Under the pieces are notes generated by a model. The model was not told the origin of the DNA. It searched no databases and saw nothing but the letters and a program-made list of their open reading frames with translations. A stretch of DNA of 64,000 nt from contig JBGCEL010000010.1 in the NCBI GenBank assembly GCA_045106455.1, forward strand, positions 116,878-180,877, written 5' to 3'. Each line of letters starts with the position of its first letter. Position 1 is the first letter of the stretch. The stretch is from Gammaproteobacteria bacterium (GTDB lineage: Bacteria > Pseudomonadota > Gammaproteobacteria > Steroidobacterales > JBCCMA01). A program made the position numbers and the translations under genes. Below are positions 18,693 to 52,964 of the stretch, piece by piece.

Positions 18693-19784
18693 ATGACCAG
18701 CACCGGTTCGCCCGATGTCATCGACACTCACGAACCTTTCACGCAATTGTGTGATGCATTGCGCTCCGCGCCCGTCGTGGCCGTGGACACCGAGTTCATG
18801 CGCGTGCGGACCTACGCCCCGGTACTGTGTCTGATCCAGATTTATGACGGTCATCAGGCCGTCTGCGTCGATGCCTTGAAGATCGAAAATCTCGGCGCGC
18901 TTATCGAGGTCTTTGGGCAACACGCACAACCCACGCTGCTGCACTCTGCGCGTCAGGACCTGGAGACCTTCTTTCTCGGTTGCGGGGCCCTGCCCACGAC
19001 GCTGTTCGACACGCAAATTGCCGCCGCACTGACCGGCCCGGACGATCAGCTAAGCTACGCCCAACTGGTTGAAGATATAGCAGGCGTAACGCTCGCCAAG
19101 AGCCAGACACGCACGAACTGGGCGAAGCGCCCACTCACATCGCATCAATTGCAGTATGCCGCGGACGACGTGCGCTACCTTCCCGCGCTGCACGACCATT
19201 TGCGCGACAAGCTCATTGAGCTCGACCGCTTGAGCTGGTTTGAGGAAGATTGCGCTCGCCTGCTTAGCCCCAAGCTCTACGAACCAGATCTTGCCAACGC
19301 CTGGCGGCGCTGCAAATCACGCCGCCCGTTTAGTGACGATCAACGTGGTGCGTTTCGCGCCCTGTGTGCGCTGCGCGAACGCGTGGCGGTGGTCGAGGAC
19401 AAGCCCCGCAAGTGGATCATTGAAGATGCAGGCATCGAGCAGCTCGCCGCGCTTGACACACCGGACGGCAGCGCCATTCGCGGCGTTCTGCACGACGTAC
19501 GCGCCCACCGCAGCCTGAAAATAGACGACATCCTCACCTGCATCGAAGAAGCACCACCGGCCACCGATAAACGTCCGGATCGAATGGCGCCAGAACAAAT
19601 GCGCCTGGTAACCAAAGCGATGGATCTATTGCGCAAACGCGCGGGCGAGCTGGACATCGCGCCCAGCATTTTGGCGCCCCGTCGGGACATCGAGAGATTT
19701 GTGCGCGGAGAGCGCGACGGCACCATCATGAACGGCTGGCGCCGTGATGTGATCGGCCTGCCCTTGAGCGCGGCCTTCGACTAG
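18693..19784 (+). CDS. rnd: Ribonuclease D
   Basis: 363 aa with the DEDD exonuclease motif VAVDTEFMRVRTYAPVLCLIQ, ...YAADDVRYL..., and an HRDC-like C-terminal part. Confidence 0.9.
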   Translation: MTSTGSPDVIDTHEPFTQLCDALRSAPVVAVDTEFMRVRTYAPVLCLIQIYDGHQAVCVDALKIENLGALIEVFGQHAQPTLLHSARQDLETFFLGCGALPTTLFDTQIAAALTGPDDQLSYAQLVEDIAGVTLAKSQTRTNWAKRPLTSHQLQYAADDVRYLPALHDHLRDKLIELDRLSWFEEDCARLLSPKLYEPDLANAWRRCKSRRPFSDDQRGAFRALCALRERVAVVEDKPRKWIIEDAGIEQLAALDTPDGSAIRGVLHDVRAHRSLKIDDILTCIEEAPPATDKRPDRMAPEQMRLVTKAMDLLRKRAGELDIAPSILAPRRDIERFVRGERDGTIMNGWRRDVIGLPLSAAFD

Positions 19785-19793
19785 AGATTGGCC

Positions 19794-19817
19794 GCGTCGC
19801 GGCAGTCGCCGCGACGC
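19794..19817. terminator. GC-rich hairpin between convergent rnd and adk (no U-tract)
   Basis: GCGTCGCGGC-agtc-GCCGCGACGC: a perfect 10-bp stem with a 4-nt loop. No T-run follows on either strand, so terminator function is uncertain. Confidence 0.35.
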
Positions 19818-19831
19818 AATCCCATTTCCGT

Positions 19832-21337
19832 TTAGCGGCGCCCTTTCTTACGCGCTGCTTTTTTCGCGACTTTTTTCTTGGCCGCCTTTTTGCTCGTCAC
19901 TTTCTTTTTGGCAACTTTCTTTTTGGCTGCAGGCTTCTTCTTCGCCGCTTTCTTTTTGGCTGCTGGCTTTTTCTTAGCCGCTTTTTTCGCCACTTTCTTT
20001 TTGGCGACTTTCTTTTTCGCCACTTTCTTCTTCGCGGCCTTCTTCACCACTTTTTTCTTAGCTGCCTTCTTTTTCGCAACTTTCTTCTTGGCGACTTTTT
20101 TCTTGGCCACTTTCCGAGCAACCTTCTTTTTCGCTACTTTTTTCTTAGCGACCTTTTTCGCTACCTTTTTCTTTGCCACTTTTTTCTTGGCGACTTTCCG
20201 AGCGACTTTTTTCTTGGCCACTTTTTTCTTCGCGACCTTCCGCGTCTTCTTAGCCACTTTCTTCTTCGCGACTTTCTTCGCGGTCTTCTTCACTACTTTC
20301 TTCTTGGCTGCGCTTTTCTTGGTGACTTTTTTCTTGGTGACTTTTTTCTTGGCCACTGTTTTCTTCGCGACTTTCTTCTTGCTCACCTTTTTCTTCGCTG
20401 CCACTTTCTTCGCAGACGCTTTCTTGGCGGCCGGCTTCTCAACGGCTTTCTTCACCGCTGCTTTCTTCACCGCTGCTTTCTTCTTCACTGCCGCCTTCTT
20501 AACCACTTTTTTCTTGGCGACCTTCTTCTTCGCCACTTTCTTCTTAGCAACCTTTTTCTTGGTTGCCTTGCCACCGGCTTTCTTCGACTTCTTCACCGCC
20601 ATCTTGATCGCATCACGACGCTCGGAACGATCCATCGTCGGCACGTCAGCAGCAGGCGCAGGCTTGGCCACACCTTTGCCGCGACGACGCGCGTATATTT
20701 TGATTTCCGCCACGAGTTTTTTGAAAATCGCGGGAATCTTGCCCACGGCATCAAGACGCGCCAGCTTGTCCTGAAGATCAAAGTAGGTGGTCAGAGGCTT
20801 GGTTTGTGTTTCATACACACGAAGACGGTTGCCAATGGTCTCTTCGTTATCGTCGGCACGATGGTGCAACTGGTGACCACAATGATCGCAGCGGCCTTCA
20901 ATTTGCGGCGGCGAGGAGTAGATGTTGTAGACGCGCGTGCATTTGGTACAAGTGCGGCGACCGGCCAAGCGTTGCACCAATTGGTCTTGATCCACTTCCA
21001 TCAACACCGCCACATCGAGCGGCCAGTCGTTGTCGTCCAGCATGGTGTCGAGGGCCTGAGCCTGCGACAGATTGCGTGGGAAGCCGTCCAGTACGAAGCC
21101 TTTCTTGGCATCCGGCGCCGTCAGGCGCTCGCGGATGATGGCCAACACCACTTCATCAGACACCAGATGACCGGCATCCATGGCCTGACGCGCCCGCAGA
21201 CCGAGCTCGGAGCCCGACGCCAGGGCAGCGCGCAGCAAATCCCCAGTGGAGATCTGCGGAATTTTAAATTTGTCGACGAGAAGTTTGGCTTGTGTGCCCT
21301 TGCCCGAACCCGGCGCTCCAAGTAATACAATTCTCAT
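19832..21337 (-). CDS. adk: Adenylate kinase fused to a ~255-aa Lys/Ala/Val-rich (histone H1/AlgP-like) C-terminal tail
   Basis: ATG 21337 gives [20 protein letters not shown] (P-loop), a four-Cys lid CTKC...CDHC, and an Adk core ending near ...[13 protein letters not shown]. The same frame then runs uninterrupted through [12 protein letters not shown]... to the stop at 19832. Confidence 0.85.
19850..20600. repeat. Imperfect tandem coding repeat (15-nt KKKVA units, with an 84-nt higher-order duplication)
   Basis: The plus strand reads as reiterated CTTCTT/TTTCTTGGC(G/C)AC units. The landmark TTTCCGAGC occurs at 20111 and 20195, an 84-nt (28-aa) spacing. Confidence 0.85.
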
Positions 21338-21537
21338 AATCTTGCTTTCCCGACGGCTGCTTAGAGGGCGCCCCACCGGAAATTCCCGGGTGGCGCGAAA
21401 AAAAGATCGCTAAAGCTACCGGTTGGCCTGCACCACGTCAATAATATGTGAGCATTGGTGTAAATTCGGTATCCTCACGTCGCGCGCCGATCAGATATCC
21501 AGCGCGCGATCAGTGAACACAAATTAAAGGAATCAGC

Positions 21538-22800
21538 ATGCCCAGAAAAAACGCTTTCTACGCTCAATCCGGAGGTGTGACCGCCGTCATCAACGCATCG
21601 GCGTGCGGCGTGCTGGAAACGGCGCGGGCAAACAAGGACGTCATCGGCAAGGTTTACGCCGGTCGTGACGGCATCATTGGCGCCTTGACCGAAGACCTCA
21701 TCGACACCAGCAAAGAGACAGCGCGCTCTATTGCGGCACTGCGGCATACGCCCGGTGGCGCATTCGGTTCATGCCGCTACAAGCTCAAGGGTCTAAAAGA
21801 GTCGCGCGCCCAATACGAGCGACTGATCGAAGTCTTCAAAGCCCACAACATCGGCTATTTCTTTTACAACGGCGGCGGCGACTCCATGGACACGGCGCAC
21901 AAAGTGTCGCAAATCGGTAAAGAGCTCGATTACCCCATCACCTGCGTGGGTGTGCCAAAGACCGTGGATAACGACCTGCCAGTCACCGACGTCTGCCCGG
22001 GCTTTGGCTCAGTGGCCAAGTACGTGGCGGTATCGACCATGGAGGCGGCACTCGATGTCGTATCGATGTCCCGTACGTCCACCAAGGTGTTCATTCTCGA
22101 GGTGATGGGACGTCACGCGGGCTGGATCGCCGCATCGGCCGGACTAGCTGGCAACGAAGCACACGAACCGCCACATATCATTTTATTCCCCGAGGTGACG
22201 TTTGATCAGCGCGCTTTTCTTGCGAAGGTGAAGCACTCCGTGAAAACCCACGAGTATTGCGTGATCGTGGTCTCTGAGGGCGCCAAGCGCAAAGACGGCA
22301 CGTTTTTGGCCGAGTCCGGCCTTAAGGACTCGTTTGGTCATGCGCAGCTTGGCGGCGCGGCAAGCGTCGTGGCGCAAATGGTCAAAGACAAACTCGGCTA
22401 CAAGTGTCACTACGCCATCGCCGACTACCTGCAGCGCTCGGCCCGCCACATTGCCTCGAAGGTGGACGTGGATCAGGCCTATGCGATGGGCAAGGCGGCG
22501 GTTGAGCTGGCCGTGCGTGGCAACAACGCGGTCATGCCGGTGATTGTGCGCCGTTCGGACAAGCCGTATCGCTGGGGCGTGGGCGTCGTAAAACTCCGTC
22601 AGGTTGCAAACAAAGAGAAAATGCTGCCAAAGAGCTATATCAGCCGCGACGGCTTTGGCATTACGGCCGCGTGTCGGCGCTATCTGGAGCCGCTGATCCG
22701 TGGCGAAGATTACCCGGCGTATCGGGCCGGTCTGCCGCGCTACGTGAAGCTCAAGAACGTGGCGGTGCCCAAGAAGCTTACGTCGACGTTTAAGATCTAG
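21538..22800 (+). CDS. pfp: 6-phosphofructokinase, probably pyrophosphate-dependent
   Basis: 420 aa, PfkA family. GGGDS is present (Asp at the position equivalent to E. coli Gly104), and so is PKTVDND (Lys at the position equivalent to Gly124). These two residues distinguish PPi- from ATP-dependent enzymes. Confidence 0.88.
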   Translation: MPRKNAFYAQSGGVTAVINASACGVLETARANKDVIGKVYAGRDGIIGALTEDLIDTSKETARSIAALRHTPGGAFGSCRYKLKGLKESRAQYERLIEVFKAHNIGYFFYNGGGDSMDTAHKVSQIGKELDYPITCVGVPKTVDNDLPVTDVCPGFGSVAKYVAVSTMEAALDVVSMSRTSTKVFILEVMGRHAGWIAASAGLAGNEAHEPPHIILFPEVTFDQRAFLAKVKHSVKTHEYCVIVVSEGAKRKDGTFLAESGLKDSFGHAQLGGAASVVAQMVKDKLGYKCHYAIADYLQRSARHIASKVDVDQAYAMGKAAVELAVRGNNAVMPVIVRRSDKPYRWGVGVVKLRQVANKEKMLPKSYISRDGFGITAACRRYLEPLIRGEDYPAYRAGLPRYVKLKNVAVPKKLTSTFKI

Positions 22801-22984: not shown

Positions 22985-23614
22985 TTACCGTCTTCTGCGA
23001 CGGACCACACGCATCAACAGTGTGCCCGCCATGACCAGAAGCAAGACGGGCGGCTCAGGCACAGCCACCGTCGTTCCCAGCGTCACATTATCGATGTGCA
23101 CGAAATCCAGCGCACTAAACTCGAACCCGGTGAAGAATTCATTGCCGGTTAGAACAAAGCCCTGAAACAGCTGGGCATCCTGGACTTCCGGCAGCGTGAA
23201 ATCGAACAGATAAGCGGACACGTTGGTGAAAATCGTCAGGGTCACATCGGCCAGGACGTTGCCTTGGTTATTGATCGCCATATCGAGTGCAAACATGGTG
23301 AAATTACCAGCAAGGTCCGCGGTCAATGAGGTGCCAATCTCTTCGTACGACATTGTATTGCTGAGCGGATTGATAAACGTGTCAGCGCCCACAATCAAGT
23401 TTTCGCCCGGCGAGGTGTAGGTGACGCTGCCATCAACAAACGGATCGCCCGGGGAGGTGAAAATTCCCGGAGCGAAAGACTCAAAGTCTTGAAATTCGGC
23501 GATAGTGCCCTGGTTTTCAAAGTCGTTCCGGTCGTCAAAGGTGATCGGCCCCGCCGATGCACCCAACGTCATCTGCGCCAGCATCAGGCCGAGCGCCAGT
23601 GTCCTTGTGTTCAT
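22985..23614 (-). CDS. PEP-CTERM sorting-domain secreted protein
   Basis: 209 aa with a signal peptide (MNTRTLALGLMLAQMTLGASA). The C-terminus VPEPPVLLLVMAGTLLMRVVRRRRR is the PEP motif plus a TM helix plus an Arg cluster. GC is visibly lower than in the neighbouring genes. Confidence 0.8.
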   Translation of the reverse strand: MNTRTLALGLMLAQMTLGASAGPITFDDRNDFENQGTIAEFQDFESFAPGIFTSPGDPFVDGSVTYTSPGENLIVGADTFINPLSNTMSYEEIGTSLTADLAGNFTMFALDMAINNQGNVLADVTLTIFTNVSAYLFDFTLPEVQDAQLFQGFVLTGNEFFTGFEFSALDFVHIDNVTLGTTVAVPEPPVLLLVMAGTLLMRVVRRRRR

Positions 23615-23852: not shown

Positions 23853-25871
23853 TTAGTGCAGCAGCGGTGCGATCACGAGCGACACGATGGCCATCACGTT
23901 GATCAGAATGTTCATCGCAGGGCCAGAGGTGTCCTTGAACGGATCGCCCACGGTGTCGCCCACGACGGCCGCTTTGTGGGTGTCCGAACCCTTGCCGCCG
24001 TGATGCCCTTTTTCGATGTACTTCTTCGCGTTATCCCAGGCGCCACCGGCGTTGGCCATAAACAGCGCCAGACTCACGCAGCCGAGCAGCGCGCCGCCGA
24101 GCATGCCGCCCAGCGCCTGCGCACCCAGACCCAAACCAACTACCACAGGGGCCGCCACAGCCAGAACGCCCGGCAGGATCATGCGCTTGAGCGCCGCGGT
24201 CGTTGCGATGTCCACGCAGCGTACGGTGTCGGGCTTGGCTTTGCCTTCCAGCAGACCGGGGATTTCGCGGAACTGGCGGCGGATTTCCGTGATCATGTCG
24301 AAGGCGGCGTCGCCTACGGCCGTCATGGTCAACGCGCCCACCAGGAACGGGAAGATGCCGCCCAGGAACATGCCAATCAGCACAATCGGCTCACTGAGCA
24401 CAATCGAGAAGTCCGGATTCTGCAGGCGTACCGTCTCGATAAAGGCCGTGATGATGGCCAGCGCCGCCAGTGCCGCAGCACCAATGGCGAAGCCTTTACC
24501 AATGGCAGCCGTGGTGTTGCCCACTTCATCCAGCGAATCGGTGATTTCACGCACTTCTTTGCCCATGGCCGACATCTCGGCAATCCCGCCGGCGTTATCC
24601 GCCACCGGACCGTACGCGTCGATGGCCATGGTGATACCCACGGTGGCCAGCATGCCCACGGCCGCGATACCCACGCCGTACAGGCCGGCTGTGAGGTTGG
24701 CGACGTAGATGATGACGCAGATCGTCAGCATCGGAATGACGATGGAGTGCATACCTACGGCAAGGCCGGTGATCATGACCGTCGCCGGACCCGTTTCGCC
24801 CGAGGCCGCAATTTTGCGCACCGGCGTGGAGCCGGTGTAGTACTCAGTGACCAGACCAATGATCGTGCCGCCGACCGCGCCGGTCAGCACGGCGATCCAC
24901 ACTCCGTTGGCGATGCCCGTGGCGCTGCCCACAAAGTAGGCGGCAATCACAAACAGCACCGCCGCGCCCAGCGTACCGGTACGCAGCGCTACTTCCGGCG
25001 CACGGCCAGAAGCCATTTTGACCATCGCGATACCAAGCACCGAGCAAATCAGGCCGGTCGCGGCCAGCAGCAACGGCAGACCCATCAGCGCCGAGCGCGT
25101 GCCGGTTTCGGTGAGCATCGCCGCCAGAGGCTCGGCAGCAAGCGTGGAGGCAATGGCGATACTCGCGATCATCGAGCCGCAGTACGATTCAAAAATATCT
25201 GAGCCCATACCGGCGACGTCGCCCACGTTGTCGCCCACATTATCGGCGATGACGCCGGGGTTACGTGGATCGTCTTCCGGGATACCGGCTTCGATTTTAC
25301 CCACGAGGTCGGCGCCCACGTCCGCACTCTTGGTGAAGATGCCGCCACCGACGCGCGAGAACAGTGCCACCACTGAGCCACCCATGCCGAAGCCGTGCAG
25401 CACGTGTGCCGTTTCCGGATCACCACCAAAGAAAAGATACAGCGTGCCCAGACCCAAAAGGCCCATGGCCGCCACGGTCAGACCCATAATCGAGCCACCG
25501 TAAAAGGCCAGCGACAGCGCCTTCGCCGCGCCCGAGTCGCGTGCCGCGACAGCCGTGCGCACGTTGGCGCGCGTGGCGGTGTACATACCAATGCCGCCCG
25601 CAATCGACGAGCACAGCGCACCGGCCACAAAGGCGATGGCGGTTTTGCTGCCAAGCGGTGAGAAGAAGATGATGATGGCCACGACAATCGCGAAGCCCCA
25701 CAGCAGCGTGTATTCACGACGAATAAACGCCATTGCGCCGCGATGGATGTCCTCGGCAATCGCGGCGACTTCGCCTTCACCCGCCGGTGCGGCGCGCACG
25801 ATGCCATAGAGCACAAAAGCCAGCACAAGGCCGATAGCCCCGACGATGACCGGTATCAGTTCAATATTCAT
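23853..25871 (-). CDS. hppA: Membrane-bound ion-pumping pyrophosphatase
   Basis: 672 aa, polytopic, with [16 protein letters not shown]. The motif [10 protein letters not shown] carries Ala rather than Lys, which is the signature of the K+-dependent subfamily. H+ versus Na+ specificity cannot be read from the sequence. Confidence 0.95.
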
Positions 25872-42977: not shown

Positions 42978-44252
42978 ATGTCTCCACTGTCCGATGAATA
43001 TCTAAGCAGCCTCGAACCCGAGACCCTGCGCTACGACGTTACGATCTTCGACGACTTCGTCATTAGTGTCCTGCCCAACGGCATTAAGACCTGGGCGTTT
43101 CTCTATGACTACGAAGGTCGCAAACGGCGCAAGACGCTCGGCGTCTACCCCGATATGTCTTATGAAGAGGCAGAAGACGCGCTGGACAACTCCCGCGCAA
43201 TGATTCTGAAGCTCGGCGACGACATCAAAGACTCGCCGGTGGAGCCCGACGTACGCACGGTCGAGATTCCAAAAGAGGCCATGGTGGCAACGCCACCACC
43301 GGCGCCGCCACCGGAACTGCGCCCGGCGGTTCTCGCCACTCGCACGCGCAAACGCTATCACACGCGCCCGCACAAAATGGGCGGCGGCGGCAAACGCTAC
43401 TTTGCGTTGGGCCTGTTATGCGTTCTGGCACTGGGCGCCGCCATCGTGATCCTGCCGCGTCTGGGCGGCGGCGGTACGGCCACGAGCGCCGCGCCGGCCG
43501 AAGAAAAAATTCCCGGGCGCGCGCAGCCAAAACCTATCGTGATTGAGAGTGAACCGGAGCCGGCCAAGCCGCGGCCCGGACGCATGGCACCGAAACCCAT
43601 CATCCTCGATGACACACCAGCGCCGGCGCCACCGCCCGTAACGACGCCGTCACCCGTGGAATCTGAGCCTCTGGCCGCAACCGAAGTGCTGCCGGCCGAG
43701 CCCGTGCGAACGGTCAGCGCACCGGCGGATCCATTGCCGACACCGGAGCCGGAGCCAATTCAAGCCCAGGAACCAGAGCCGGTCGTTGTGGCCGCCGCAC
43801 CTACCCCACCGGCAAGTGCCGAACCAGAACGAGTGGCAGCGGTCAGCGCGCCAAGCGAGCCTGCAATCACAGCACCGGTGACGACCACGCCCGTTGAGAC
43901 CGAAGCGACCTCCACCGGCGGCAACGTCACCCGCTCGATCGTGACCAGCGATGTGGCCGATCTGGAACCGGTAGACAATCTGGGGGCGAACATCACATTG
44001 ACGAACGGCGGCTACCAAACGGTGTTTTATTTCACCGAGCTGCGTAACTTCACGGCAGGCAACATCGTGCACCGCTGGACCTACAATGGCCGGGTGATCG
44101 CCGATGTGCCGCTGCGCGTAAACGGCGGCTGGCGCTGGCGTACGTATTCGAGCAAAGATCTTTTGCCCGGCATGACGGGCGATTGGAGCGTGTCGGTCGT
44201 CGACGGCGACGGCCGCGTATTGGGCGAGCAAAAATTCCGGTTTGACCGCTAG
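42978..44252 (+). CDS. Single-pass membrane protein: integrase-Arm-like (DUF4102-like) N-domain, Pro-rich linker, DUF2914-like C-domain
   Basis: ATG 42978 gives 424 aa. The N-terminus ...FVISVLPNGIKTWAFLYDYEGRKRRKTLGVYPDMSYEEAEDA follows the P4-integrase Arm-domain pattern. The TM helix is YFALGLLCVLALGAAIVILP (nt ~43398-43460), followed by a P/A/E-rich spacer. The C-terminus is ...FYFTELRNFTAGNIVHRWTYNGRVIADVPLRVNGGWRWRTYSSK.... Confidence 0.7.
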   Translation: MSPLSDEYLSSLEPETLRYDVTIFDDFVISVLPNGIKTWAFLYDYEGRKRRKTLGVYPDMSYEEAEDALDNSRAMILKLGDDIKDSPVEPDVRTVEIPKEAMVATPPPAPPPELRPAVLATRTRKRYHTRPHKMGGGGKRYFALGLLCVLALGAAIVILPRLGGGGTATSAAPAEEKIPGRAQPKPIVIESEPEPAKPRPGRMAPKPIILDDTPAPAPPPVTTPSPVESEPLAATEVLPAEPVRTVSAPADPLPTPEPEPIQAQEPEPVVVAAAPTPPASAEPERVAAVSAPSEPAITAPVTTTPVETEATSTGGNVTRSIVTSDVADLEPVDNLGANITLTNGGYQTVFYFTELRNFTAGNIVHRWTYNGRVIADVPLRVNGGWRWRTYSSKDLLPGMTGDWSVSVVDGDGRVLGEQKFRFDR

Positions 44253-45817
44253 GCCGCCGCGCCAAACACCACGACATCATCCCCTTCCTGCCACGGCGCG
44301 TATTTGCGCATCACGGCCGTGAAGTCTGCGGATGCTTCAAACGTCGCGAGCCAGTCAATCACCCGACGAAAACTCTGCTGATCAAACCACTCAGGATCTG
44401 CGATACGGAACTGGCGTACAAACGGCGCAATCGCGACGTCGGCTAATGAACGTCGCGATCCGCACAGCCAGCCGTTTGCACTGAGCTGTTGGTCGAGCGT
44501 CTGCAAAAACGCCACGCCGCGCTCGCGCGCAGCAAAGGGATCGGCATCGTCATAGCGGCTGGCATACTTGTAACGATCAAGATCGGGCTTGAAATCCTTA
44601 TCGCAGCGACGAATGAGTGCATTCATTGCCTCGACTTCGCCATCTTCAGGCGCCAGCCACTGTTCGGGATCATTCACAGACAGGGCAAAGCGCATAATGT
44701 CCAGGCTTTCTTCCAGCACACGACCGCTGGTATCAATCAAAATGGGCACGGTGGCTTTCGGCGAAACCTCAAGCATCGCCTCGGGCTTATCGCGCAGCAC
44801 CACCTCGCGCAATGCGACGTCAATCCCGGCCATGCGCAGCGCCAAACGCGCGCGCATCGCAAACGGACAGCGCCGGAACGAATAGAGCACGGGCAGTGCA
44901 GGCGCCTCGCGTCTTCCAAGATGAGCCTCATTGCGCGATTCTGCCAATCGCATCTGACGATGGCGCTCGGCAAAACGCTCTTTCTGCTTATCCGTCGTTT
45001 GATCCACGCAGCGCGCGCAGCTAACCCCCTCAACAAACTGCGCCGACCGCTGATCCTCTTTGCTCAACGGATGGCGGCACGCCCGACACAGCGCATAGGG
45101 ACCCTGCTTTAGATCCGGCCCCACGGCCACGCGCTCATCAAACACAAAACAATGGCCCTCAAAGCGATTGTCGTCGACGTCAATTTTCTCCAGATAATTC
45201 AAGATGCCGCCACGCAAGTGATAGACCTCTTTCACACCGCGCGATTTCAATAACGCGGTGGATTTTTCGCAGCGAATACCGCCCGTGCAAAACATCGCCA
45301 CGCGGGAGTTTTCATCGATGGGCGCGCTGTCGTCAAGCCACGCCGGCAGCTCGCCGAAACTGCTCGTATCCGGGGAAATGGCGCCCTCAAACGTGCCCAG
45401 CTCAACTTCGTAGTCGTTGCGCGTATCCACCACCACGACATCCGGATCGTCCAAAAGCGCGTTCCAGTTTTCCGGCTCAACGTATTCACCGGCCTGGGTC
45501 ACCGGATCAACCGCCGGCACGCCAAGCGTCACGATTTCTCTTTTCAGACGCACCTTGAGTCGATAGAAAGGTGGTGCCGACGCGGGCGCCCATTTGATGT
45601 CCAGATCGGCAAACCGTGGGTCGCGACCGAGCTCCGCGAACAACGCTTCAAGCGCGTCGGGCGCACCCGCTATAGTGCCGTTGATGCCCTCGCGAGCCAG
45701 CAAAATGGTGCCCAATGCGCTGTGACGTTCGCACAGTTCACGTACGGGGTCGCGCAGATCATAAAAATTCGGGAGCGCGACGAAACGATAGAACGCCGCC
45801 GTTACACAATCACTCAT
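44249..45817 (-). CDS. Fusion protein: rhodanese-family tRNA U34 hydroxylase TrhO/YceA (UPF0176) + glutathione S-transferase-like domain
   Basis: 522 aa. Residues 1-~300 carry AFYRFVALPN...LLAREGINGTIAG, the rhodanese loop FCTGGIRCEKS and a Cys-rich tail. Residues ~308-522 are thioredoxin-fold GST-like: PVLYSFRRCPFAMRARLAL...VPILID...ESLDIMRF. Confidence 0.8.
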   Translation of the reverse strand: MSDCVTAAFYRFVALPNFYDLRDPVRELCERHSALGTILLAREGINGTIAGAPDALEALFAELGRDPRFADLDIKWAPASAPPFYRLKVRLKREIVTLGVPAVDPVTQAGEYVEPENWNALLDDPDVVVVDTRNDYEVELGTFEGAISPDTSSFGELPAWLDDSAPIDENSRVAMFCTGGIRCEKSTALLKSRGVKEVYHLRGGILNYLEKIDVDDNRFEGHCFVFDERVAVGPDLKQGPYALCRACRHPLSKEDQRSAQFVEGVSCARCVDQTTDKQKERFAERHRQMRLAESRNEAHLGRREAPALPVLYSFRRCPFAMRARLALRMAGIDVALREVVLRDKPEAMLEVSPKATVPILIDTSGRVLEESLDIMRFALSVNDPEQWLAPEDGEVEAMNALIRRCDKDFKPDLDRYKYASRYDDADPFAARERGVAFLQTLDQQLSANGWLCGSRRSLADVAIAPFVRQFRIADPEWFDQQSFRRVIDWLATFEASADFTAVMRKYAPWQEGDDVVVFGAAA

Positions 45818-46904: not shown

Positions 46905-47276
46905 TTACCTTACCCTTACGCGCAATCGAATCGGCCCTTTAGCCGTCGACGGGTCCACGATCTTACCCTTTTGCACGATGTCCAGCTTGCCGGCCGCCTC
47001 CAGCCTGCGCGCGGCGCAGCGGGTGGGCTCCATCAGTGCATCGATGCGCGCAGCGTCCACGCGCCGCGCGGCTTCGCTTGGACAAATGGTGGCGCCGCTA
47101 CGGCGCTCGGCGAGCAACGCCACAATCGCGTCCTCAAGCGCCTGGCCAATTTGGCCTGGGCCCCCGCGGCACGCCTTGGAGCAATACTTCACCTGATCCC
47201 AGGTGCGAGCCCACTTACGTCGCCACTGCATCTCGCGCCCGCAGGTCACACAACGTTTCGCCTCCGGTTCGCTCAT
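46905..47276 (-). CDS. DUF2256 zinc-ribbon + DUF3253 fusion protein
   Basis: ATG 47276 overlaps the upstream stop (ATGA). CVTCGREMQWRRKWARTWDQVKYCSKACR matches the DUF2256 pattern, and ...ICPSEAARRV...GKLDIVQKGKIVDPSTAKGPIRLR matches the DUF3253 pattern. Confidence 0.75.
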   Translation of the reverse strand: MSEPEAKRCVTCGREMQWRRKWARTWDQVKYCSKACRGGPGQIGQALEDAIVALLAERRSGATICPSEAARRVDAARIDALMEPTRCAARRLEAAGKLDIVQKGKIVDPSTAKGPIRLRVRVR

Positions 47277-49657
47277 CCGTTCGCGTACGCCATCACGCCC
47301 GCCGCCGCTGCCACGCCACTTTGCCACGCACTTTCGACACGCGAGCGGCCAGCGCAGGCATCACCGGCAAGCCAAACACCACGGTCCAGATGCCGCGCGG
47401 GCGATGACGGCTTGCTCATCATTTTGATCCGGGCATAGCGCCATCTGTGGCCCACCGCGTCCAATGCCGCCGGCAGTTCCGGCATGACTTTCTGGAACTG
47501 CACTGCGAGCGCTTGCGCGATGTCCGGCCGCGCGTCATCCAAATGACGTTCAGACCAGGCCGGTGTCGCATGCACAATCCAGTGCGACAAACCCGGCGTA
47601 ACGCGTCGACCGGGCTTGGACGAATCGCAGGCAACCCACGCAATTATCTCATCGTCCACCGAGGCCGCATCCATCGGGGCGTCAACCTGCGGCAGCGTGA
47701 GCATCGCGGCATGACAGGGCATGTATTGAAGGTTGGGCAACGGTGCGCGCAGTGACAGGTTCGCTGAATTCAGAAGCAAGGTGGCCTGCGGCAACGGCAG
47801 GGTCAAAATTACCTGATCAAAACGCTCGCCCTGCACTTCCCAGCCGCCATCAAGAGCCTCAAGCGAAGTCACTTCGGTACGCGTGCGTACGTCCAGCTCC
47901 GCAGACAAGTATTGGCAGATCGCGTTCATGCCAGGGACCGCCGTCATACGCCGGGCGGCCTCGGCCGGCCGCATTCCAGACAGAGCATCGATCTGCACCA
48001 GCGATTGCGGCCACGGCGCCACCAGACCGTCTTCTTCCCACGCGTCGACACGCCGCTTAAACGACGCATCGCGCACCGTAAAATACTGCGCCCCGTGATC
48101 GAAATTCCCGGCATCGGCACGGCGCGTTGACATTCGCCCACCGACCCCGCGCCCCTTATCCATGACCACAACCTGATGACCGTGATCAGCCAACGTGCGC
48201 GCGGCCGCCAATCCGCTGATTCCGGCACCAACCACGGCAATCCGCTGCGTCTTGCCCGCGGCACCATCCGTGCGCTGCGCCCAACGCGCCTGATCCAGAC
48301 GTTTTGCGTGGGCACTGATCGAACGCGGGCGTACCGTGCCCAGTATCGCGACGGCCGGTTTAAACGGCCGGTCAAACTGACCCAGCGCCCACAGCAAACC
48401 GCCGTAGCTATTGGGGTCACTCCCATCAAGCGCGTAGCGATGATTCAGGTCCAACAGCATGGCCAGAGCGCGTTCCGGCGACGGCGTCCACTGCAGCAGC
48501 TGCTTGGCCCAGGTCATGCGTACGTTGTTGTGCAGCTCACCGTGAATCAGAAGCGAGCGCTGCGCCTGATCCCATAAAGGCTCGCCCGTGCGCGCATGCG
48601 CCAGAGTGTCCCAGGATTTAAGGGCCGGGCGCGGATCGTCGCGATGGGCCTGCAATGTCTCGCGTGCCCACTGTGGAATGGCCGTCAGCGTGTCGAGCTG
48701 CGGCGTGTGAAAACAAAAGTTGTGCGCCAGCTCGCGCCACACAAACAACTCATCCAAATATTTATCCGCCCCGCTGCCACCGTGCGCCGCTGCTTCTCGC
48801 GCCACGCGCAGCGGTGAGATGCAGCCGTAATGCAAATAAGGCGACAGGCGACTCACGCCACGCGGCGGTGGCTCGGCGGCATCGTTGCGCCGGCGGTCGT
48901 AGTCGTTCAGGCCGTGATCGAAAAACGTCTGCCAACGTGCCTGCGCCGCTACGCCGCCGCCGGGCGTGCCCCAGACCGGCGCGACACTGTGGTCGATGTC
49001 ACACCGGGCAATCGCGGCCAGCAGATCCGCATCACTTTGTGCCACGTTGAAGGCGCCGGCCATCAGCGCATCTTCTGCCTGCGGCAGTTCAATCGAGCAT
49101 GACGGATACGCGGACTGCAGGCGCGCCGCGTAGTCTTCCGCCGTCGCTTTGCGAAATGCGAAAGCTCGATCATAACGCTTGCGCACGCTTTGCATGGGCA
49201 CGATGCAACGTGCATCTACGGCGACTACGGGCGCATTTATTTGCGCCGCCAACGCCGCCTGCCACTGCGGAAACGGCGCAACCGGCATTTCTTCGACCAC
49301 AAGCATGGTCGCGCGTCGGGCCCAATCCATAACGCGGCCGTGTTGCTGCGCATCCAGATGAAAACGATGAGCTACACCAATTTGCGCCAGATCACTGGCG
49401 ACGTCACGCGCCGCTTGCAACGCGAAAAAATGATGCCGATCGTTGCTGTACTGATGCGCACCGCCCAAACCCTGCACCACCAACAAGGGTTTGCTTTGTT
49501 CACAAGCTATATGCCGCGCCACGTCCAGAGCCGGATTTTCATCGACGCGTTGAGCGTGATGCATCCAGTACACAACGCAGTCCCCGACAGGCACGGCACG
49601 ATCCGCGAGCACGCGCACCCGCTCGCGCAGATGCGCCGGCAGCGTCTCCATCATCAT
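47273..49657 (-). CDS. Fusion protein: class-II-like CPD photolyase + NAD(P)/FAD-dependent (amine-oxidase/renalase-like) oxidoreductase
   Basis: N-terminal ~470 aa: VVYWMHHAQRVDENPAL, DELFVWRELAHNF and NNVRMTWAKQLLQWT...YALDGSDPNSYGGLLWALGQFDRPF. C-terminal ~320 aa starts with the dinucleotide fold RIAVVGAGISGLAAARTLADHGHQVVVMDKGRGVGGR (nt ~48244 downward). The likely start is ATG 49657 (MMMETL), 1 nt after the upstream gene stop. Confidence 0.8.
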   Translation of the reverse strand: MMMETLPAHLRERVRVLADRAVPVGDCVVYWMHHAQRVDENPALDVARHIACEQSKPLLVVQGLGGAHQYSNDRHHFFALQAARDVASDLAQIGVAHRFHLDAQQHGRVMDWARRATMLVVEEMPVAPFPQWQAALAAQINAPVVAVDARCIVPMQSVRKRYDRAFAFRKATAEDYAARLQSAYPSCSIELPQAEDALMAGAFNVAQSDADLLAAIARCDIDHSVAPVWGTPGGGVAAQARWQTFFDHGLNDYDRRRNDAAEPPPRGVSRLSPYLHYGCISPLRVAREAAAHGGSGADKYLDELFVWRELAHNFCFHTPQLDTLTAIPQWARETLQAHRDDPRPALKSWDTLAHARTGEPLWDQAQRSLLIHGELHNNVRMTWAKQLLQWTPSPERALAMLLDLNHRYALDGSDPNSYGGLLWALGQFDRPFKPAVAILGTVRPRSISAHAKRLDQARWAQRTDGAAGKTQRIAVVGAGISGLAAARTLADHGHQVVVMDKGRGVGGRMSTRRADAGNFDHGAQYFTVRDASFKRRVDAWEEDGLVAPWPQSLVQIDALSGMRPAEAARRMTAVPGMNAICQYLSAELDVRTRTEVTSLEALDGGWEVQGERFDQVILTLPLPQATLLLNSANLSLRAPLPNLQYMPCHAAMLTLPQVDAPMDAASVDDEIIAWVACDSSKPGRRVTPGLSHWIVHATPAWSERHLDDARPDIAQALAVQFQKVMPELPAALDAVGHRWRYARIKMMSKPSSPARHLDRGVWLAGDACAGRSRVESAWQSGVAAAAGVMAYANG

Positions 49658-49658
49658 C

Positions 49659-49988
49659 TCAACCGTGCCCAACAGGCGTGGTGTGTGACGATCCGCTCGC
49701 GGCACTGGTCAACGCGGTTTCCACAAGGGTCATCACCAGGTCAGCGAGCTGATCTTTTTGCATGGGAATCATGTGCGCACGCACCGCCAATGCCATGGCC
49801 ATCCCCTGCAGCAAATCCCCATTGCCGGTATCACCGGTAAGCGTCACCTCGCGATCGACGGTTTCGAGCACGGCACTGAGCACCTGCGCCACGCGCACGG
49901 CGGACTGGGTTTGTTCGTGCAATTTGAATTCGACATCGAGCATCTCACCGCTGCGCGTGGTGGCTCGATAGGGAAGTGACTTGGGCAT
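49659..49988 (-). CDS. Hypothetical protein, first gene of the photolyase operon
   Basis: 109-aa ORF. AGGAGA lies 5 nt upstream of ATG 49988. No family recognised. Confidence 0.5.
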   Translation of the reverse strand: MPKSLPYRATTRSGEMLDVEFKLHEQTQSAVRVAQVLSAVLETVDREVTLTGDTGNGDLLQGMAMALAVRAHMIPMQKDQLADLVMTLVETALTSAASGSSHTTPVGHG

Positions 49989-50926: not shown

Positions 50927-52753
50927 CTACCAGCCGCAGCTGCGTCCCTCGTTTTGCTCTTCGAGCCAACCCATCAGCGGCGCGAAATAATCGATAATGG
51001 CCGAACCGTCCATGGTGCGTTGCCCGGTGAGTTTTTCAAATGCATCGGGCCACGGCTGGCTGCTGCCCATCGCCAGCATGTCCATGAAGCGCTGGCCGGC
51101 CTCTTCGTTGCCGTAAATCGAACACTCGTGCAGCGGCACATCGCTGTCCATGCCCTCGCACAGCGCTTTATGGAATTGGAACTGCAGAATGAACGACAGA
51201 AAATAGCGCGTGTACGGCGTGTTGCCCGGCACGTGGTATTTCGCACCCGGATCAAAATTTTCTTCGCTGCGCTCAAGCGGTGGCGTGATGCCCTGATACT
51301 TGGTCCGTAACGTCCACCAGTCGCCGTTGTAACGCGCAGGCGGCGTCTTGCCCGAGAACACGCCCCAGCGCCACTGATCGACCAGCTTGCCAAACGGCAA
51401 GAACGCGATTTTCTCCAACGCCATTTTCATCTGCTGATTAATGACCGCTTCATTGCTGGCTTCGACGTCGCCCACCAAACCAATTTTGTTCAGGTAATCG
51501 GGTGTCATCGACAGCACGATGGTGTCACCGATGGCCTCATGGAATCCGTCGTGCGCGCCGTCTTGAAAAAGTGCCGGCTGGTCTTGGTAAATCAGAAAGT
51601 AATAGATGTGACCCAATTCGTGATAAATGGTGGTCAGGAATTCCTCCGTCGGTTCGATGCACATTTTGATGCGCACATCTTCTTTGCCATCGATGGGCCA
51701 GGCGCTGGCGTGACACACCACATCGCGATCAGCGGGCTTGATGAGCATTGAGCGCTCCCAAAACGATGCCGGCAACTTGGGCATTCCAAGCGAGGTGAAA
51801 AACGTTTCGGCCTGCTCGACCATTTTCACCGCATCGTAACCTTGCTCAACAAGCGCGCCGGACACATCCAAATTGGCCGCGCCGGGATAAGGCTCCAGCA
51901 AATCGTAGATATTGTTCCACTGCTGCGACCACATATTGCCCAGCAGGTGTGCCGGTATCGGGCCGTCCTGGGGCACTTTGTCGGTACCGTACTGCTCGCC
52001 AAGCTTGGCCCGCACGTGACAATGCAGCGCTTCATAAAGCGGCTTTACCTGGCCCCAGAGCCGCTCAGCTTCTTGCTCAAAGTCATCACTGGGCATGTCG
52101 TAGCCGGCTTTCCACAGATCGCCGAGGTTGTCGTAGCCCAACTCTTTGGCGCCCATCGCGGTGAGCTGTGCAAAGCGCTCATACAGCGGGCGAATGGGCG
52201 GCGAAATCGTGCGCCAACCCTGCCAGGCTTCGAGCAGCTCATCATAATCACGCACGGTCGCGAGCGTGGTTTCCAGTTCGTTCAGCGACAGGCAGCTGTT
52301 CTCCCCATTCGGGCAGTATTTGCCCTTGCCATACATCGAATCCATTTCCACCGCGAGACGCGCGAGCTCGGCACGCAATGCAGGATCATTGGGAGCGGGC
52401 ATGGACGAGCCGAGTTTGATTAAGTCAATGGCTCGGGCGGTCGCACCGGACAGCGGTACGTCATTGAACTGTTTGGCTTCTTCAATAATGCGGCTATTAA
52501 ATGCCAGCGCTTTTTCATTGCCTTCAGCGGCACGGGCAACCGTCTCGTCCGTAATGTTCGTGGCACGCGCCCACTCAAGTTTGGACAGTTCGAGATTGAG
52601 TACGGCCAGTTCCGCATTAACACCGTCGACGTAGTCCGCCGCGGCAGCGGATGACCCCACCTCGCGAGCCTTTTCTGGTGGGCTGGTTTCGGTAGCATCC
52701 GAGCAACCGAACAACACGATCATGATCAGACCGGATAACATTCTTGAATTCAT
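50927..52753 (-). CDS. M2-family peptidyl-dipeptidase (angiotensin-converting-enzyme-like), probable lipoprotein
   Basis: Zinc site HELGHIYY plus the downstream HEAIGD. ATG 52753 gives MNSRMLSGLIMIVLFGCSD (lipobox LFGC). The track ORF start 52804 is the alternative. Confidence 0.85.
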   Translation of the reverse strand: MNSRMLSGLIMIVLFGCSDATETSPPEKAREVGSSAAAADYVDGVNAELAVLNLELSKLEWARATNITDETVARAAEGNEKALAFNSRIIEEAKQFNDVPLSGATARAIDLIKLGSSMPAPNDPALRAELARLAVEMDSMYGKGKYCPNGENSCLSLNELETTLATVRDYDELLEAWQGWRTISPPIRPLYERFAQLTAMGAKELGYDNLGDLWKAGYDMPSDDFEQEAERLWGQVKPLYEALHCHVRAKLGEQYGTDKVPQDGPIPAHLLGNMWSQQWNNIYDLLEPYPGAANLDVSGALVEQGYDAVKMVEQAETFFTSLGMPKLPASFWERSMLIKPADRDVVCHASAWPIDGKEDVRIKMCIEPTEEFLTTIYHELGHIYYFLIYQDQPALFQDGAHDGFHEAIGDTIVLSMTPDYLNKIGLVGDVEASNEAVINQQMKMALEKIAFLPFGKLVDQWRWGVFSGKTPPARYNGDWWTLRTKYQGITPPLERSEENFDPGAKYHVPGNTPYTRYFLSFILQFQFHKALCEGMDSDVPLHECSIYGNEEAGQRFMDMLAMGSSQPWPDAFEKLTGQRTMDGSAIIDYFAPLMGWLEEQNEGRSCGW

Positions 52754-52964
52754 AGACACTCTCGGAGTTTTCTTCTTAATGTGCGCGGACGCTGCGAACG
52801 CCACGGTTTACGGGGATTGCCCGGTTGAGTCAAATTTGCTGCAGCGCCGCACCAGCGACGGACATTGGTAGCAATTACGAAGCGCTACGTATATTATTAA
52901 ACACCTGCGGTTACGGCGCGCTAGCGAAGCGCATGCCGCCCGCTTTGCAACCCTGGACGACACT

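Follow-up and report, generated by a model that had tools for sequence, protein, structure and literature searches.

Adenylate kinase (Adk), an enzyme studied as thoroughly as almost any other, is regarded as a monomer of ~24 kDa that diffuses freely. The adk gene at 19832–21337 on the reverse strand of contig JBGCEL010000010.1 (numbered within the 64,000-nt stretch analyzed here, referred to as the window) raises two questions: whether its product is one protein in which a complete Adk continues into a long lysine-rich tail, and what such a tail might do. A sequence-only reading of the window had described an uninterrupted open reading frame (ORF) joining the enzyme to a tail of lysine, alanine, and valine, and this was confirmed as a single ORF of 501 codons, starting with ATG at 21337 and ending with TAA at 19832–19834. 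We consider it reasonably probable, largely by analogy with other polycationic tails, that the gene encodes a housekeeping Adk extended in situ into one polypeptide, the tail of which would be disordered and would tether the enzyme to cellular polyanions by charge.

An upstream GTG at 21376 would lengthen the protein by 13 aa; all homologues begin with MRIVLLG. When the 765-nt tail DNA was shuffled 20,000 times, the frame stayed open in no case, and 11 and 8 stops are present in the two remaining sense frames; thus, the open frame of the tail exceeds chance expectation. The promoter scan of the adk locus retrieved no sigma-70-like promoter, and the terminator scan retrieved no T-run terminator, while terminator-like matches within the tail were at chance level. 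An antisense ORF at 19878–20774 on the forward strand (298 aa, beginning FFLATFF and rich in Phe, Leu, Ala, and Thr) was rejected as a gene, being the mirror image of the AAG/AAA lysine codons. This antisense ORF could be mis-called in annotation.

The P-loop GAPGSGKGT, the Cys4 lid CTKC...CDHC, and the core end named in the sequence-only reading were all located, the core ending at aa 216. The protein scored 178.8 bits against Pfam ADK PF00406 (9e-53, cut-off 26.8) and passed the NCBIfam adenylate-kinase equivalog NF001380 (277.4 bits, cut-off 251) and TIGR01351 (242.3 bits, cut-off 168). Residues 1–211 were aligned without gaps to the Zn-lid Adk structure PDB 5g3y (E 5.6e-69), and the lid matched ADK_lid PF05191 at 44.9 bits (cut-off 26.6) with the four cysteines of the Zn-binding LID subtype, which were invariant among 33 homologues. 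The catalytic residues K13, R36, R88, R123, R127, R160, D162, D163, and R171 were present and invariant in a 13-sequence core alignment; among the 33 full-length homologues, they were invariant or nearly so, with the exception of D162. In the AlphaFold2 (AF2) model, the predicted local distance difference test score (pLDDT) was 90–97 across aa 1–220, covering the three-domain CORE/NMP/LID fold, and the 50 top-ranked Foldseek matches listed were all Adk (TMt 0.68–0.89). The core is a complete canonical Zn-lid Adk, and judging by its catalytic residues and its modeled fold, it should catalyze ATP + AMP <-> 2 ADP. It shares with the long-LID Zn-binding Adk of the Bacillus/Geobacillus type (PDB 1zin, 1p3j, and 5g3y; NF001380) the P-loop, the catalytic Arg and Asp residues, the Cys4 lid, the predicted fold, and the equivalog-level score, aligning over the full core with 46–49% identity. 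However, enzymes of that type end at ~217 aa, whereas the window Adk runs 285 residues further through a linker and a tail with a charge of +136.

The linker, previously put at ~30 aa with the tail starting near nt 20600, was measured as 29 aa (aa 217–245), and the tail starts from aa 246 (nt 20602). The tail had been described as about half lysine and built of KKKVA pentads, and it was found to contain 51.2% lysine and 18 exact pentads, with a 5-residue periodicity (lag-5 autocorrelation of 0.61). The GC content of its DNA is 46%, compared with 59% for the window. As for the reported 28-aa/84-nt duplication, the higher-order 42-nt and 84-nt repeats are real, but the exact 28-aa string occurs once (aa 380–407) and not twice. 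Six copies of an identical 13-aa peptide were found in the tail, and the DNA encoding them differs at 13–26% of positions, all synonymous; thus, the repeats appear to be old and maintained at the protein level rather than produced by recent slippage. The AF2 model gave pLDDT <50 for aa 275–342 and 414–501 (156 tail residues), a moderately confident helix at aa 237–271, and a confident helix at aa 345–413 over the most regular repeats. The tail is therefore modeled as a largely disordered polycation.

Whether the two parts are one product was evaluated using independent assemblies and transcripts. Short-read assemblers do break in these repeats, and mis-assembly, collapse of repeats, or an overlooked frameshift could have merged two products artificially: in the DNA runs X1 and X2, the locus is covered by several overlapping contigs, which end within the repeats at 20314–20489. 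Logan contigs can also mis-join repeats, although the joints observed share fewer letters than the assembler word length. However, 100% of the sampled 31-mers of 19700–21500 were present in each of three DNA runs labelled 'plant metagenome' (X1–X3), and in X3 a single Logan contig of 8,398 nt spanned this interval with 0 differences and 0 gaps relative to the window. The exact 501-aa protein was called on this independent contig. No stop codon or frameshift separates the core from the tail in the X3 contig or in the three closest relatives, each of which has a single ORF, and the architecture is common to four species-level genomes from different studies and to hundreds of database homologues. 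Four metatranscriptomes yielded contigs on both tail and core, and with a looser match threshold two RNA contigs extend from within the tail through the linker into the core (20329–20723 and 20329–20698). All four RNA runs have 15 nt fewer than the window at 20445, and one RNA contig of 699 nt lacks 87 nt (29 codons) overall. Every observed length difference is a multiple of three; thus, repeat-length variation exists and stays in frame. The earlier expectation that the repeat DNA would be prone to length variation or assembly collapse was thus borne out for variation, but no collapse was seen. With the independent contig, the four species, the RNA contigs over the junction, and the in-frame-only indels, the two-gene and artefact explanations were rejected; we regard an artefact as extremely improbable. 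The single ORF in four species, the RNA contigs over the junction, and the independent assembly indicate that Adk and its tail are a single translated unit. In runs X1–X5, many short contigs searched against 19940–20560 match 30–60 nt of the tail and then enter other K-rich coding sequence, which suggests that these communities hold further strains or genes with similar repeats.

The adk loci of close relatives were compared using contigs from one genome per GTDB species. The three closest species (L001, L002, and L003) keep a single tailed ORF of 509, 503, and 508 aa, with cores 97, 92, and 86% identical to that of the window and tails of 255–263 aa carrying a net charge of +121 to +141, although tail identity is just 51–75%. 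The synonymous divergence (dS) of the core between the window and these species is ~1.1–1.7, at which synonymous sites are saturated. In the tail, the nonsynonymous difference per site (pN) was 0.15–0.33 and the synonymous difference (pS) 0.73–0.84, compared with a pN of 0.03–0.10 in the core, the low-complexity alignment of the tail being ambiguous. Because of this ambiguity and the saturation, the comparison is given only as pN below pS and not as a tail dN/dS. The tail thus appears to evolve faster than the core yet under constraint, with selection preserving length and composition while the sequence itself changes.

Beyond these species, a search of 5.8 billion proteins with the core and linker as the query found a basic tail of at least 30 aa in 118 of the best 120 matches (median 102, maximum 216). 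Of the 79 closest representatives of 50%-identity clusters that have a single Adk domain at the N-terminus, 58 extend by at least 40 aa, and 55 of these 58 extensions contain at least 20% K+R, with tails up to 331 aa; such lists of representatives and homologues may over-represent long members. In a neighbour-joining tree of the cores, all 20 members of the clade of the window are tailed (74–357 aa), the clade comprising the window, Natronospirales, Thiotrichaceae/Thiotrichales, Chromatiales including the Lamellibrachia endosymbiont, and Acidiferrobacterales-like metagenome-assembled genomes (MAGs). The sister lineages Ectothiorhodospira, Methylophaga, and Oceanococcus have Adk without a tail. 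A second, patchy set of tailed Adks, some of them Arg-rich, was found in Steroidobacteraceae, including the cultured Steroidobacter gossypii S1-65 (350 aa). The statement that canonical bacterial Adk has no tail therefore holds for model organisms but not for this gammaproteobacterial clade, in which a basic tail is the norm and the window Adk represents, as a long example, an architecture that is widespread and unannotated; longer Adks were found in L019 (571 aa) and L025 (545 aa). The tails of L025 (a Chromatiales MAG) and L026 (the Lamellibrachia endosymbiont), 331 and 310 aa long, are bipolar, with a strongly acidic Glu/Pro/Val-rich spacer of 70–80 aa preceding the Lys-rich part.

The source names seen for tailed Adks are plain 'adenylate kinase'. 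No description of a Lys-rich Adk tail was found in the literature searched on adenylate kinase, and one apparent match (PMC3574117) was discarded as an unrelated reference; the long Lys-tailed Adk is new to that literature, and the architecture is widespread and uncharacterized. A survey of low-complexity regions in ~1,500 proteomes links K-rich regions to nucleic-acid binding and, citing analyses of eukaryotic proteomes, reports metabolic proteins to be depleted of such regions; adenylate kinase is not mentioned in it (PMC6821194). The NCBIfam equivalog NF010381 (PRK13808) is an 'adenylate kinase' model of 335 positions, of which positions 1–328 align to aa 1–350 of the tailed Adk P0310. Its C-terminal ~140 positions align with the K/A/P-rich tails of P0310, P0256, and P0311, although 0 of 10 tested proteins reach its cut-off. 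As this model exists and tailed Adks align to it, long Adks are implicitly included in curated resources under the plain name. The window Adk scored 167.7 bits against NF010381 (cut-off 426), with the best stretch at aa 1–127, and belongs to a different, much longer-tailed lineage.

The origin of the tail was examined by gene order. In the window, adk is flanked by a divergent gene for pyrophosphate (PPi)-dependent phosphofructokinase (NF010675, 647 bits) and a convergent gene for RNase D (rnd), followed by a small membrane protein and mpl. The order pfp<>adk><rnd(-mpl) was found in ~55 gammaproteobacterial loci, tailed and tail-less alike, and on this synteny the window adk is assigned as the orthologous housekeeping copy of its lineage at the usual position. 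The block (loci L002–L091) also suggests that the genomic link between adenylate and pyrophosphate energy metabolism is long-standing. The sequence-only reading had raised a fusion of adk with a once-separate downstream H1-like gene, and stand-alone K-rich HC2-type proteins do exist in databases (P0175, P0200, and P0223). In 29 tail-less loci of identical synteny, however, the distance between the stop codons of adk and the convergent rnd is −35 to +151 nt, apart from a single locus at +591 nt, with no gene or ORF between them, and the tailed loci have an equally tight junction to rnd beyond the tail. The linker Met codons M235 and M245 are not conserved in L002/L003, so no relic start codon for the tail was recognized, and its independent translation was rejected. 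A fusion is therefore very unlikely. With an unchanged gene order whether or not adk has a tail, and with no gene in the gap to rnd, the best interpretation is that the 3' end of adk was extended in situ and then lengthened through duplication of repeats. The tail probably arose a single time at the base of the main clade, with several gains or losses in Steroidobacteraceae.

To what other proteins similar tails are attached was examined by searching with the tail alone and inspecting the best 120 matches. Approximately 50 were Adk and ~55 were DksA with an N-terminal K-rich extension; the remainder comprised a few BlaI/CopY, ribbon-helix-helix (RHH), SWIB, and response regulator proteins, with fumarase, SucD, and a peroxiredoxin (AhpC) each occurring once. 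KKKVA-type tails occur at the N- or C-terminus of class I fumarase, succinyl-CoA ligase alpha, peroxiredoxin, and others (P0158, P0160, P0143, P0134, P0123, P0126, and P0176). As the search returned several unrelated host families, the KKKVA polycation appears to be a portable module, carried mostly by proteins acting at DNA or RNA polymerase, with Adk as the conspicuous metabolic exception. The extended gammaproteobacterial DksA proteins have 260–360 aa compared with ~150 (P0141, P0169, and P0197; loci L096–L108). MAGs of Woeseiaceae and Chromatiaceae are their main source, mostly in assemblies other than those with L001–L003; since the Adk of Woeseiaceae is tail-less, different lineages appear to decorate different proteins. 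Adk is the sole K-rich ORF in the 64-kb window, and a genome-wide habit of K-rich tails was rejected on this ground.

Several known systems resemble the tailed Adk in part. In Streptomyces DdbA and in K-tailed DksA, a housekeeping non-histone domain is likewise combined with an H1-like polycation, and the KKKVA-type tails on gammaproteobacterial DksA are identical in style to that of the window. Their tails are N-terminal, whereas that of the window Adk is C-terminal, and DksA acts on RNA polymerase at the nucleoid, whereas we know of no nucleic-acid partner of Adk. DdbA was the sole literature precedent found for a polycation-extended DksA. Its H1-like part binds and condenses DNA (PMC3643593). 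Pseudomonas AlgP and PhaF also carry a long, disordered, Lys/Ala-rich H1-like C-terminal tail with a strain-variable repeat number on an unrelated N-terminal domain; the tail of AlgP directs it to polyphosphate (polyP) granules and AlgP tail peptides bind DNA (PMC9239181), while the PhaF tail binds RNA via its lysines (PMC12818456). Their tails consist of KPAA tetrapeptides, in contrast to the Val-containing KKKVA pentad of the window, which lacks tandem KPAA and has 3 prolines in 256 residues (1%), approximately twice their lysine density, and a charge of +136 compared with +55 or +35. Their host domains are structural or regulatory, whereas here the host is a metabolic enzyme, and the likeness recognized is one of composition. 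The actinobacterial proteins TopA, Ku, and HupB have low-complexity K-rich C-terminal extensions (PAKKA or Lys repeats) on conserved proteins as well, and Lys repeats modulate DNA binding by Ku (PMC3553676) and raise the processivity of TopA (PMC7398561); these hosts are DNA enzymes or binders themselves, belong to another phylum, and have shorter and less charged tails. Chlamydial Hc2 (HC2, PF07382) has pentameric Lys/Ala-rich repeats too, but is a stand-alone developmental nucleoid condenser, and with a low-complexity match common descent is not established. The winged-helix GH1 domain of eukaryotic H1 (Pfam Linker_histone) had no match in the window Adk at E <= 0.01; the protein is accordingly not classed as a linker histone, and its likeness to the H1 C-terminal tail is compositional only.

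As an electrostatic tether, the tail would bind cellular polyanions non-specifically by charge, with nucleoid DNA as the first candidate, followed by RNA/ribosomes or polyP. Parts of it may turn helical on binding, and an all-cationic helix would plausibly form only once neutralized by a polyanion. Such binding would concentrate or immobilize an abundant adenylate-equilibrating enzyme on polyanion surfaces, and the tailed Adk would double as a de facto histone-H1-like polycation of the cell. The analogies are the K-rich tails of AlgP, PhaF, DdbA, Ku, and TopA described above, together with the recurrence of the KKKVA-type tail on the DNA- or RNA polymerase-associated proteins DksA, BlaI, RHH, and SWIB. 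Among the possible ligands, nucleoid DNA is a tentative choice; another ligand or none at all seems doubtful, and RNA/ribosomes and polyP would each be slightly less probable than that. Several points weigh against the tether. Sequence alone cannot tell DNA, RNA, polyP, and membrane apart as the ligand. The match of Pfam HC2 (PF07382) to aa 283–414 (3.5e-11, 44 bits, cut-off 40) appears to be compositional, because the HC2 model, like the query, consists of low-complexity K/A repeats, and a precomputed HC2 match was present on only part of the related tailed Adks. The helix modeled at aa 345–413 may be a habit of the predictor for K/A repeats. With 1% Pro and a KKKVA repeat, the tail is unlike the studied KPAA tails, so function can be transferred from them by charge only. 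Closely related lineages (such as L017, Ectothiorhodospira, Methylophaga, and Woeseiaceae) are tail-less; thus, the tail is dispensable for Adk function. Finally, its presence on metabolic enzymes (fumarase, SucD, and AhpC) would fit a generic, possibly non-specific role.

A narrower proposal is that the tail docks Adk specifically on polyP granules, where together with PPK1 or PPK2/PAP it would convert polyP and AMP into ADP and ATP as a granule-bound energy buffer. The idea is appealing, since in E. coli Adk acting with PPK yields polyP:AMP phosphotransferase activity and overproduction of PPK1 raised adenylate kinase activity as well (reviewed in PMC3163519), and the K-rich AlgP (+55) is found on polyP granules, the spacing of which requires its tail (PMC9239181). 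The tailed clade takes in Thiotrichaceae, Chromatiales, and tubeworm-symbiont lineages. Relatives of these lineages are polyP accumulators, which is regarded as a lead only. However, neither the 64-kb window nor the surroundings of adk in ~60 related loci contained ppk, ppk2, or ppx, so a genomic link to polyP metabolism was rejected; no sequence feature favors polyP over DNA or RNA, and such tails also occur on the DNA- or RNA polymerase-associated proteins named above. We therefore consider polyP-specific targeting unlikely. Tethering to the inner membrane, in which the polybasic tail would bind anionic phospholipids and place Adk near ATP synthase or the H+-pyrophosphatase, appears much less likely still. 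Polybasic stretches bind acidic lipids in many systems, and adk lies in a conserved cluster with PPi-dependent phosphofructokinase and the membrane H+-pyrophosphatase, but the tail has no amphipathic periodicity, its 5-residue repeat spreads Val and Ala around the helix, aromatic and lipid-anchor residues are absent, and soluble DNA-binding regulators carry such tails too.

The tail may also have no role and merely be tolerated, as a slippage-prone AAG/AAA-rich 3' extension that ran away after loss of a stop codon and, being disordered and C-terminal, would leave Adk undisturbed. Its fast evolution (identity of 51–75% compared with 86–97% for the core), lengths of 40–357 aa across the wider clade, patchy gains and losses in Steroidobacteraceae, in-frame indel variants between strains, and the viability of tail-less relatives are all in line with this neutral explanation. 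It is disfavored by the conserved length and charge (255–263 aa and +121 to +141 in four species with saturated synonymous sites) and by the retention of the tail in 20 of 20 members of a deep clade. Identical peptides encoded by synonymously diverged rather than identical DNA repeats argue for constraint at the protein level, as does a tail pN far below pS; the frame has stayed open despite 8–11 stops in the other frames, and a half-lysine tail on an abundant enzyme is costly. Taken together, a non-adaptive origin and persistence seems improbable, and the tether remains our preferred explanation.

Table. Features of the adk locus and its surroundings in the window (nt positions; strand as + or −, a point where none applies)
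Feature	Position	Strand	Basis and remarks
Complete coding sequence, adenylate kinase with polycationic tail	19832..21337	−	501 aa, 54.9 kDa, pI 10.9, net charge +142; identical protein on independent Logan contig
Adk catalytic core, aa 1–216 (CORE, NMP-binding, LID)	20690..21337	−	Pfam ADK, NCBIfam NF001380, PDB 5g3y, AF2, Foldseek
P-loop GAPGSGKGT, aa 7–15	21293..21319	−	Sequence; G7, P9, G10, G12, and K13 invariant in alignments
LID with Cys4 zinc knuckle CTKC...CDHC (C130, C133, C150, C153)	20879..20950	−	Pfam ADK_lid PF05191, 1.1e-11
Linker, aa 217–245	20603..20689	−	DRSERR(D/A)AI(K/R) motif kept in three closest species; start of predicted helix aa 237–271
Polycationic tail, aa 246–501 (256 aa)	19835..20602	−	K 51.2%, A 23%, V 15.6%, P 1%; net +136
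Most regular tail part, 42-nt/14-aa unit	20076..20242	−	Tandem Repeats Finder; 4.0 copies, 78% matches
84-nt periodic array enclosing the 42-nt units	19968..20239	−	Tandem Repeats Finder; 3.2 copies, 78% matches
Weak Shine-Dalgarno-like purine stretch GGAAAG (putative)	21345..21350	−	7 nt upstream of ATG, read from sequence
12-bp GC-rich hairpin	19792..19819	.	In 47-nt gap between convergent adk and rnd stops; fold −28.9 kcal/mol, z −2.96
PPi-dependent phosphofructokinase (pfp)	21538..22800	+	NF010675, 647 bits; divergent to adk
H+-translocating pyrophosphatase	23853..25871	−	Near adk

The hairpin between adk and rnd is probably a transcript-end structure shared by the two genes. Rfam and tRNA scans of the 64-kb window gave no matches. 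Elsewhere in the window, a 209-aa ORF at 22985–23614 (−) without a Pfam or NCBIfam match has a signal-like segment at its N-terminus and finishes with ...VPEPPVLLLVMAGTLLMRVVRRRRR, which, judged by its letters, resembles a PEP-CTERM sorting signal. A full-length angiotensin-converting-enzyme-like M2 peptidase is encoded at 50927–52804 (−) (Peptidase_M2, E 1e-221), a family that is uncommon in bacteria. An 810-aa ORF at 47273–49705 (−) combines an N-terminal DNA-photolyase/FAD_binding_7 part with a C-terminal flavin amine-oxidoreductase, as an unusual fusion or as two genes merged by crude ORF picking, and a 522-aa ORF at 44249–45817 (−) has UPF0176/rhodanese (TrhO-like) domains fused to the N- and C-terminal domains of GST.

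Throughout one clade of Gammaproteobacteria from the environment and from symbioses, Adk is thus a protein of 30–60 kDa, of which up to two thirds is an H1-like polycation. Selection has kept this tail while synonymous sites diverged to saturation, transcripts of it are found in situ, and annotations do not reveal it. Such tails will systematically escape proteomics based on trypsin and annotation based on domains. As a cultured carrier exists (Steroidobacter gossypii S1-65), the system is testable. A bolder extension, which we regard as rather improbable, is that in a large, often sulfur-oxidizing or symbiotic group the tailed Adk would be abundant and bound to the nucleoid or polyP, coupling energy charge to the organization of the chromosome or of polyP condensates, with KKKVA as a portable address label on Adk, DksA, fumarase, SucD, and AhpC; if true, such labels would represent a membrane-less compartmentalization of metabolism on polyanionic scaffolds. 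If the tail localizes Adk, the polycationic disordered tails of bacteria (AlgP with polyP, PhaF with RNA, and DdbA with DNA) would extend to a core metabolic enzyme, and the tailed Adk would offer a natural test case for the spatial organization of bacterial nucleotide metabolism.

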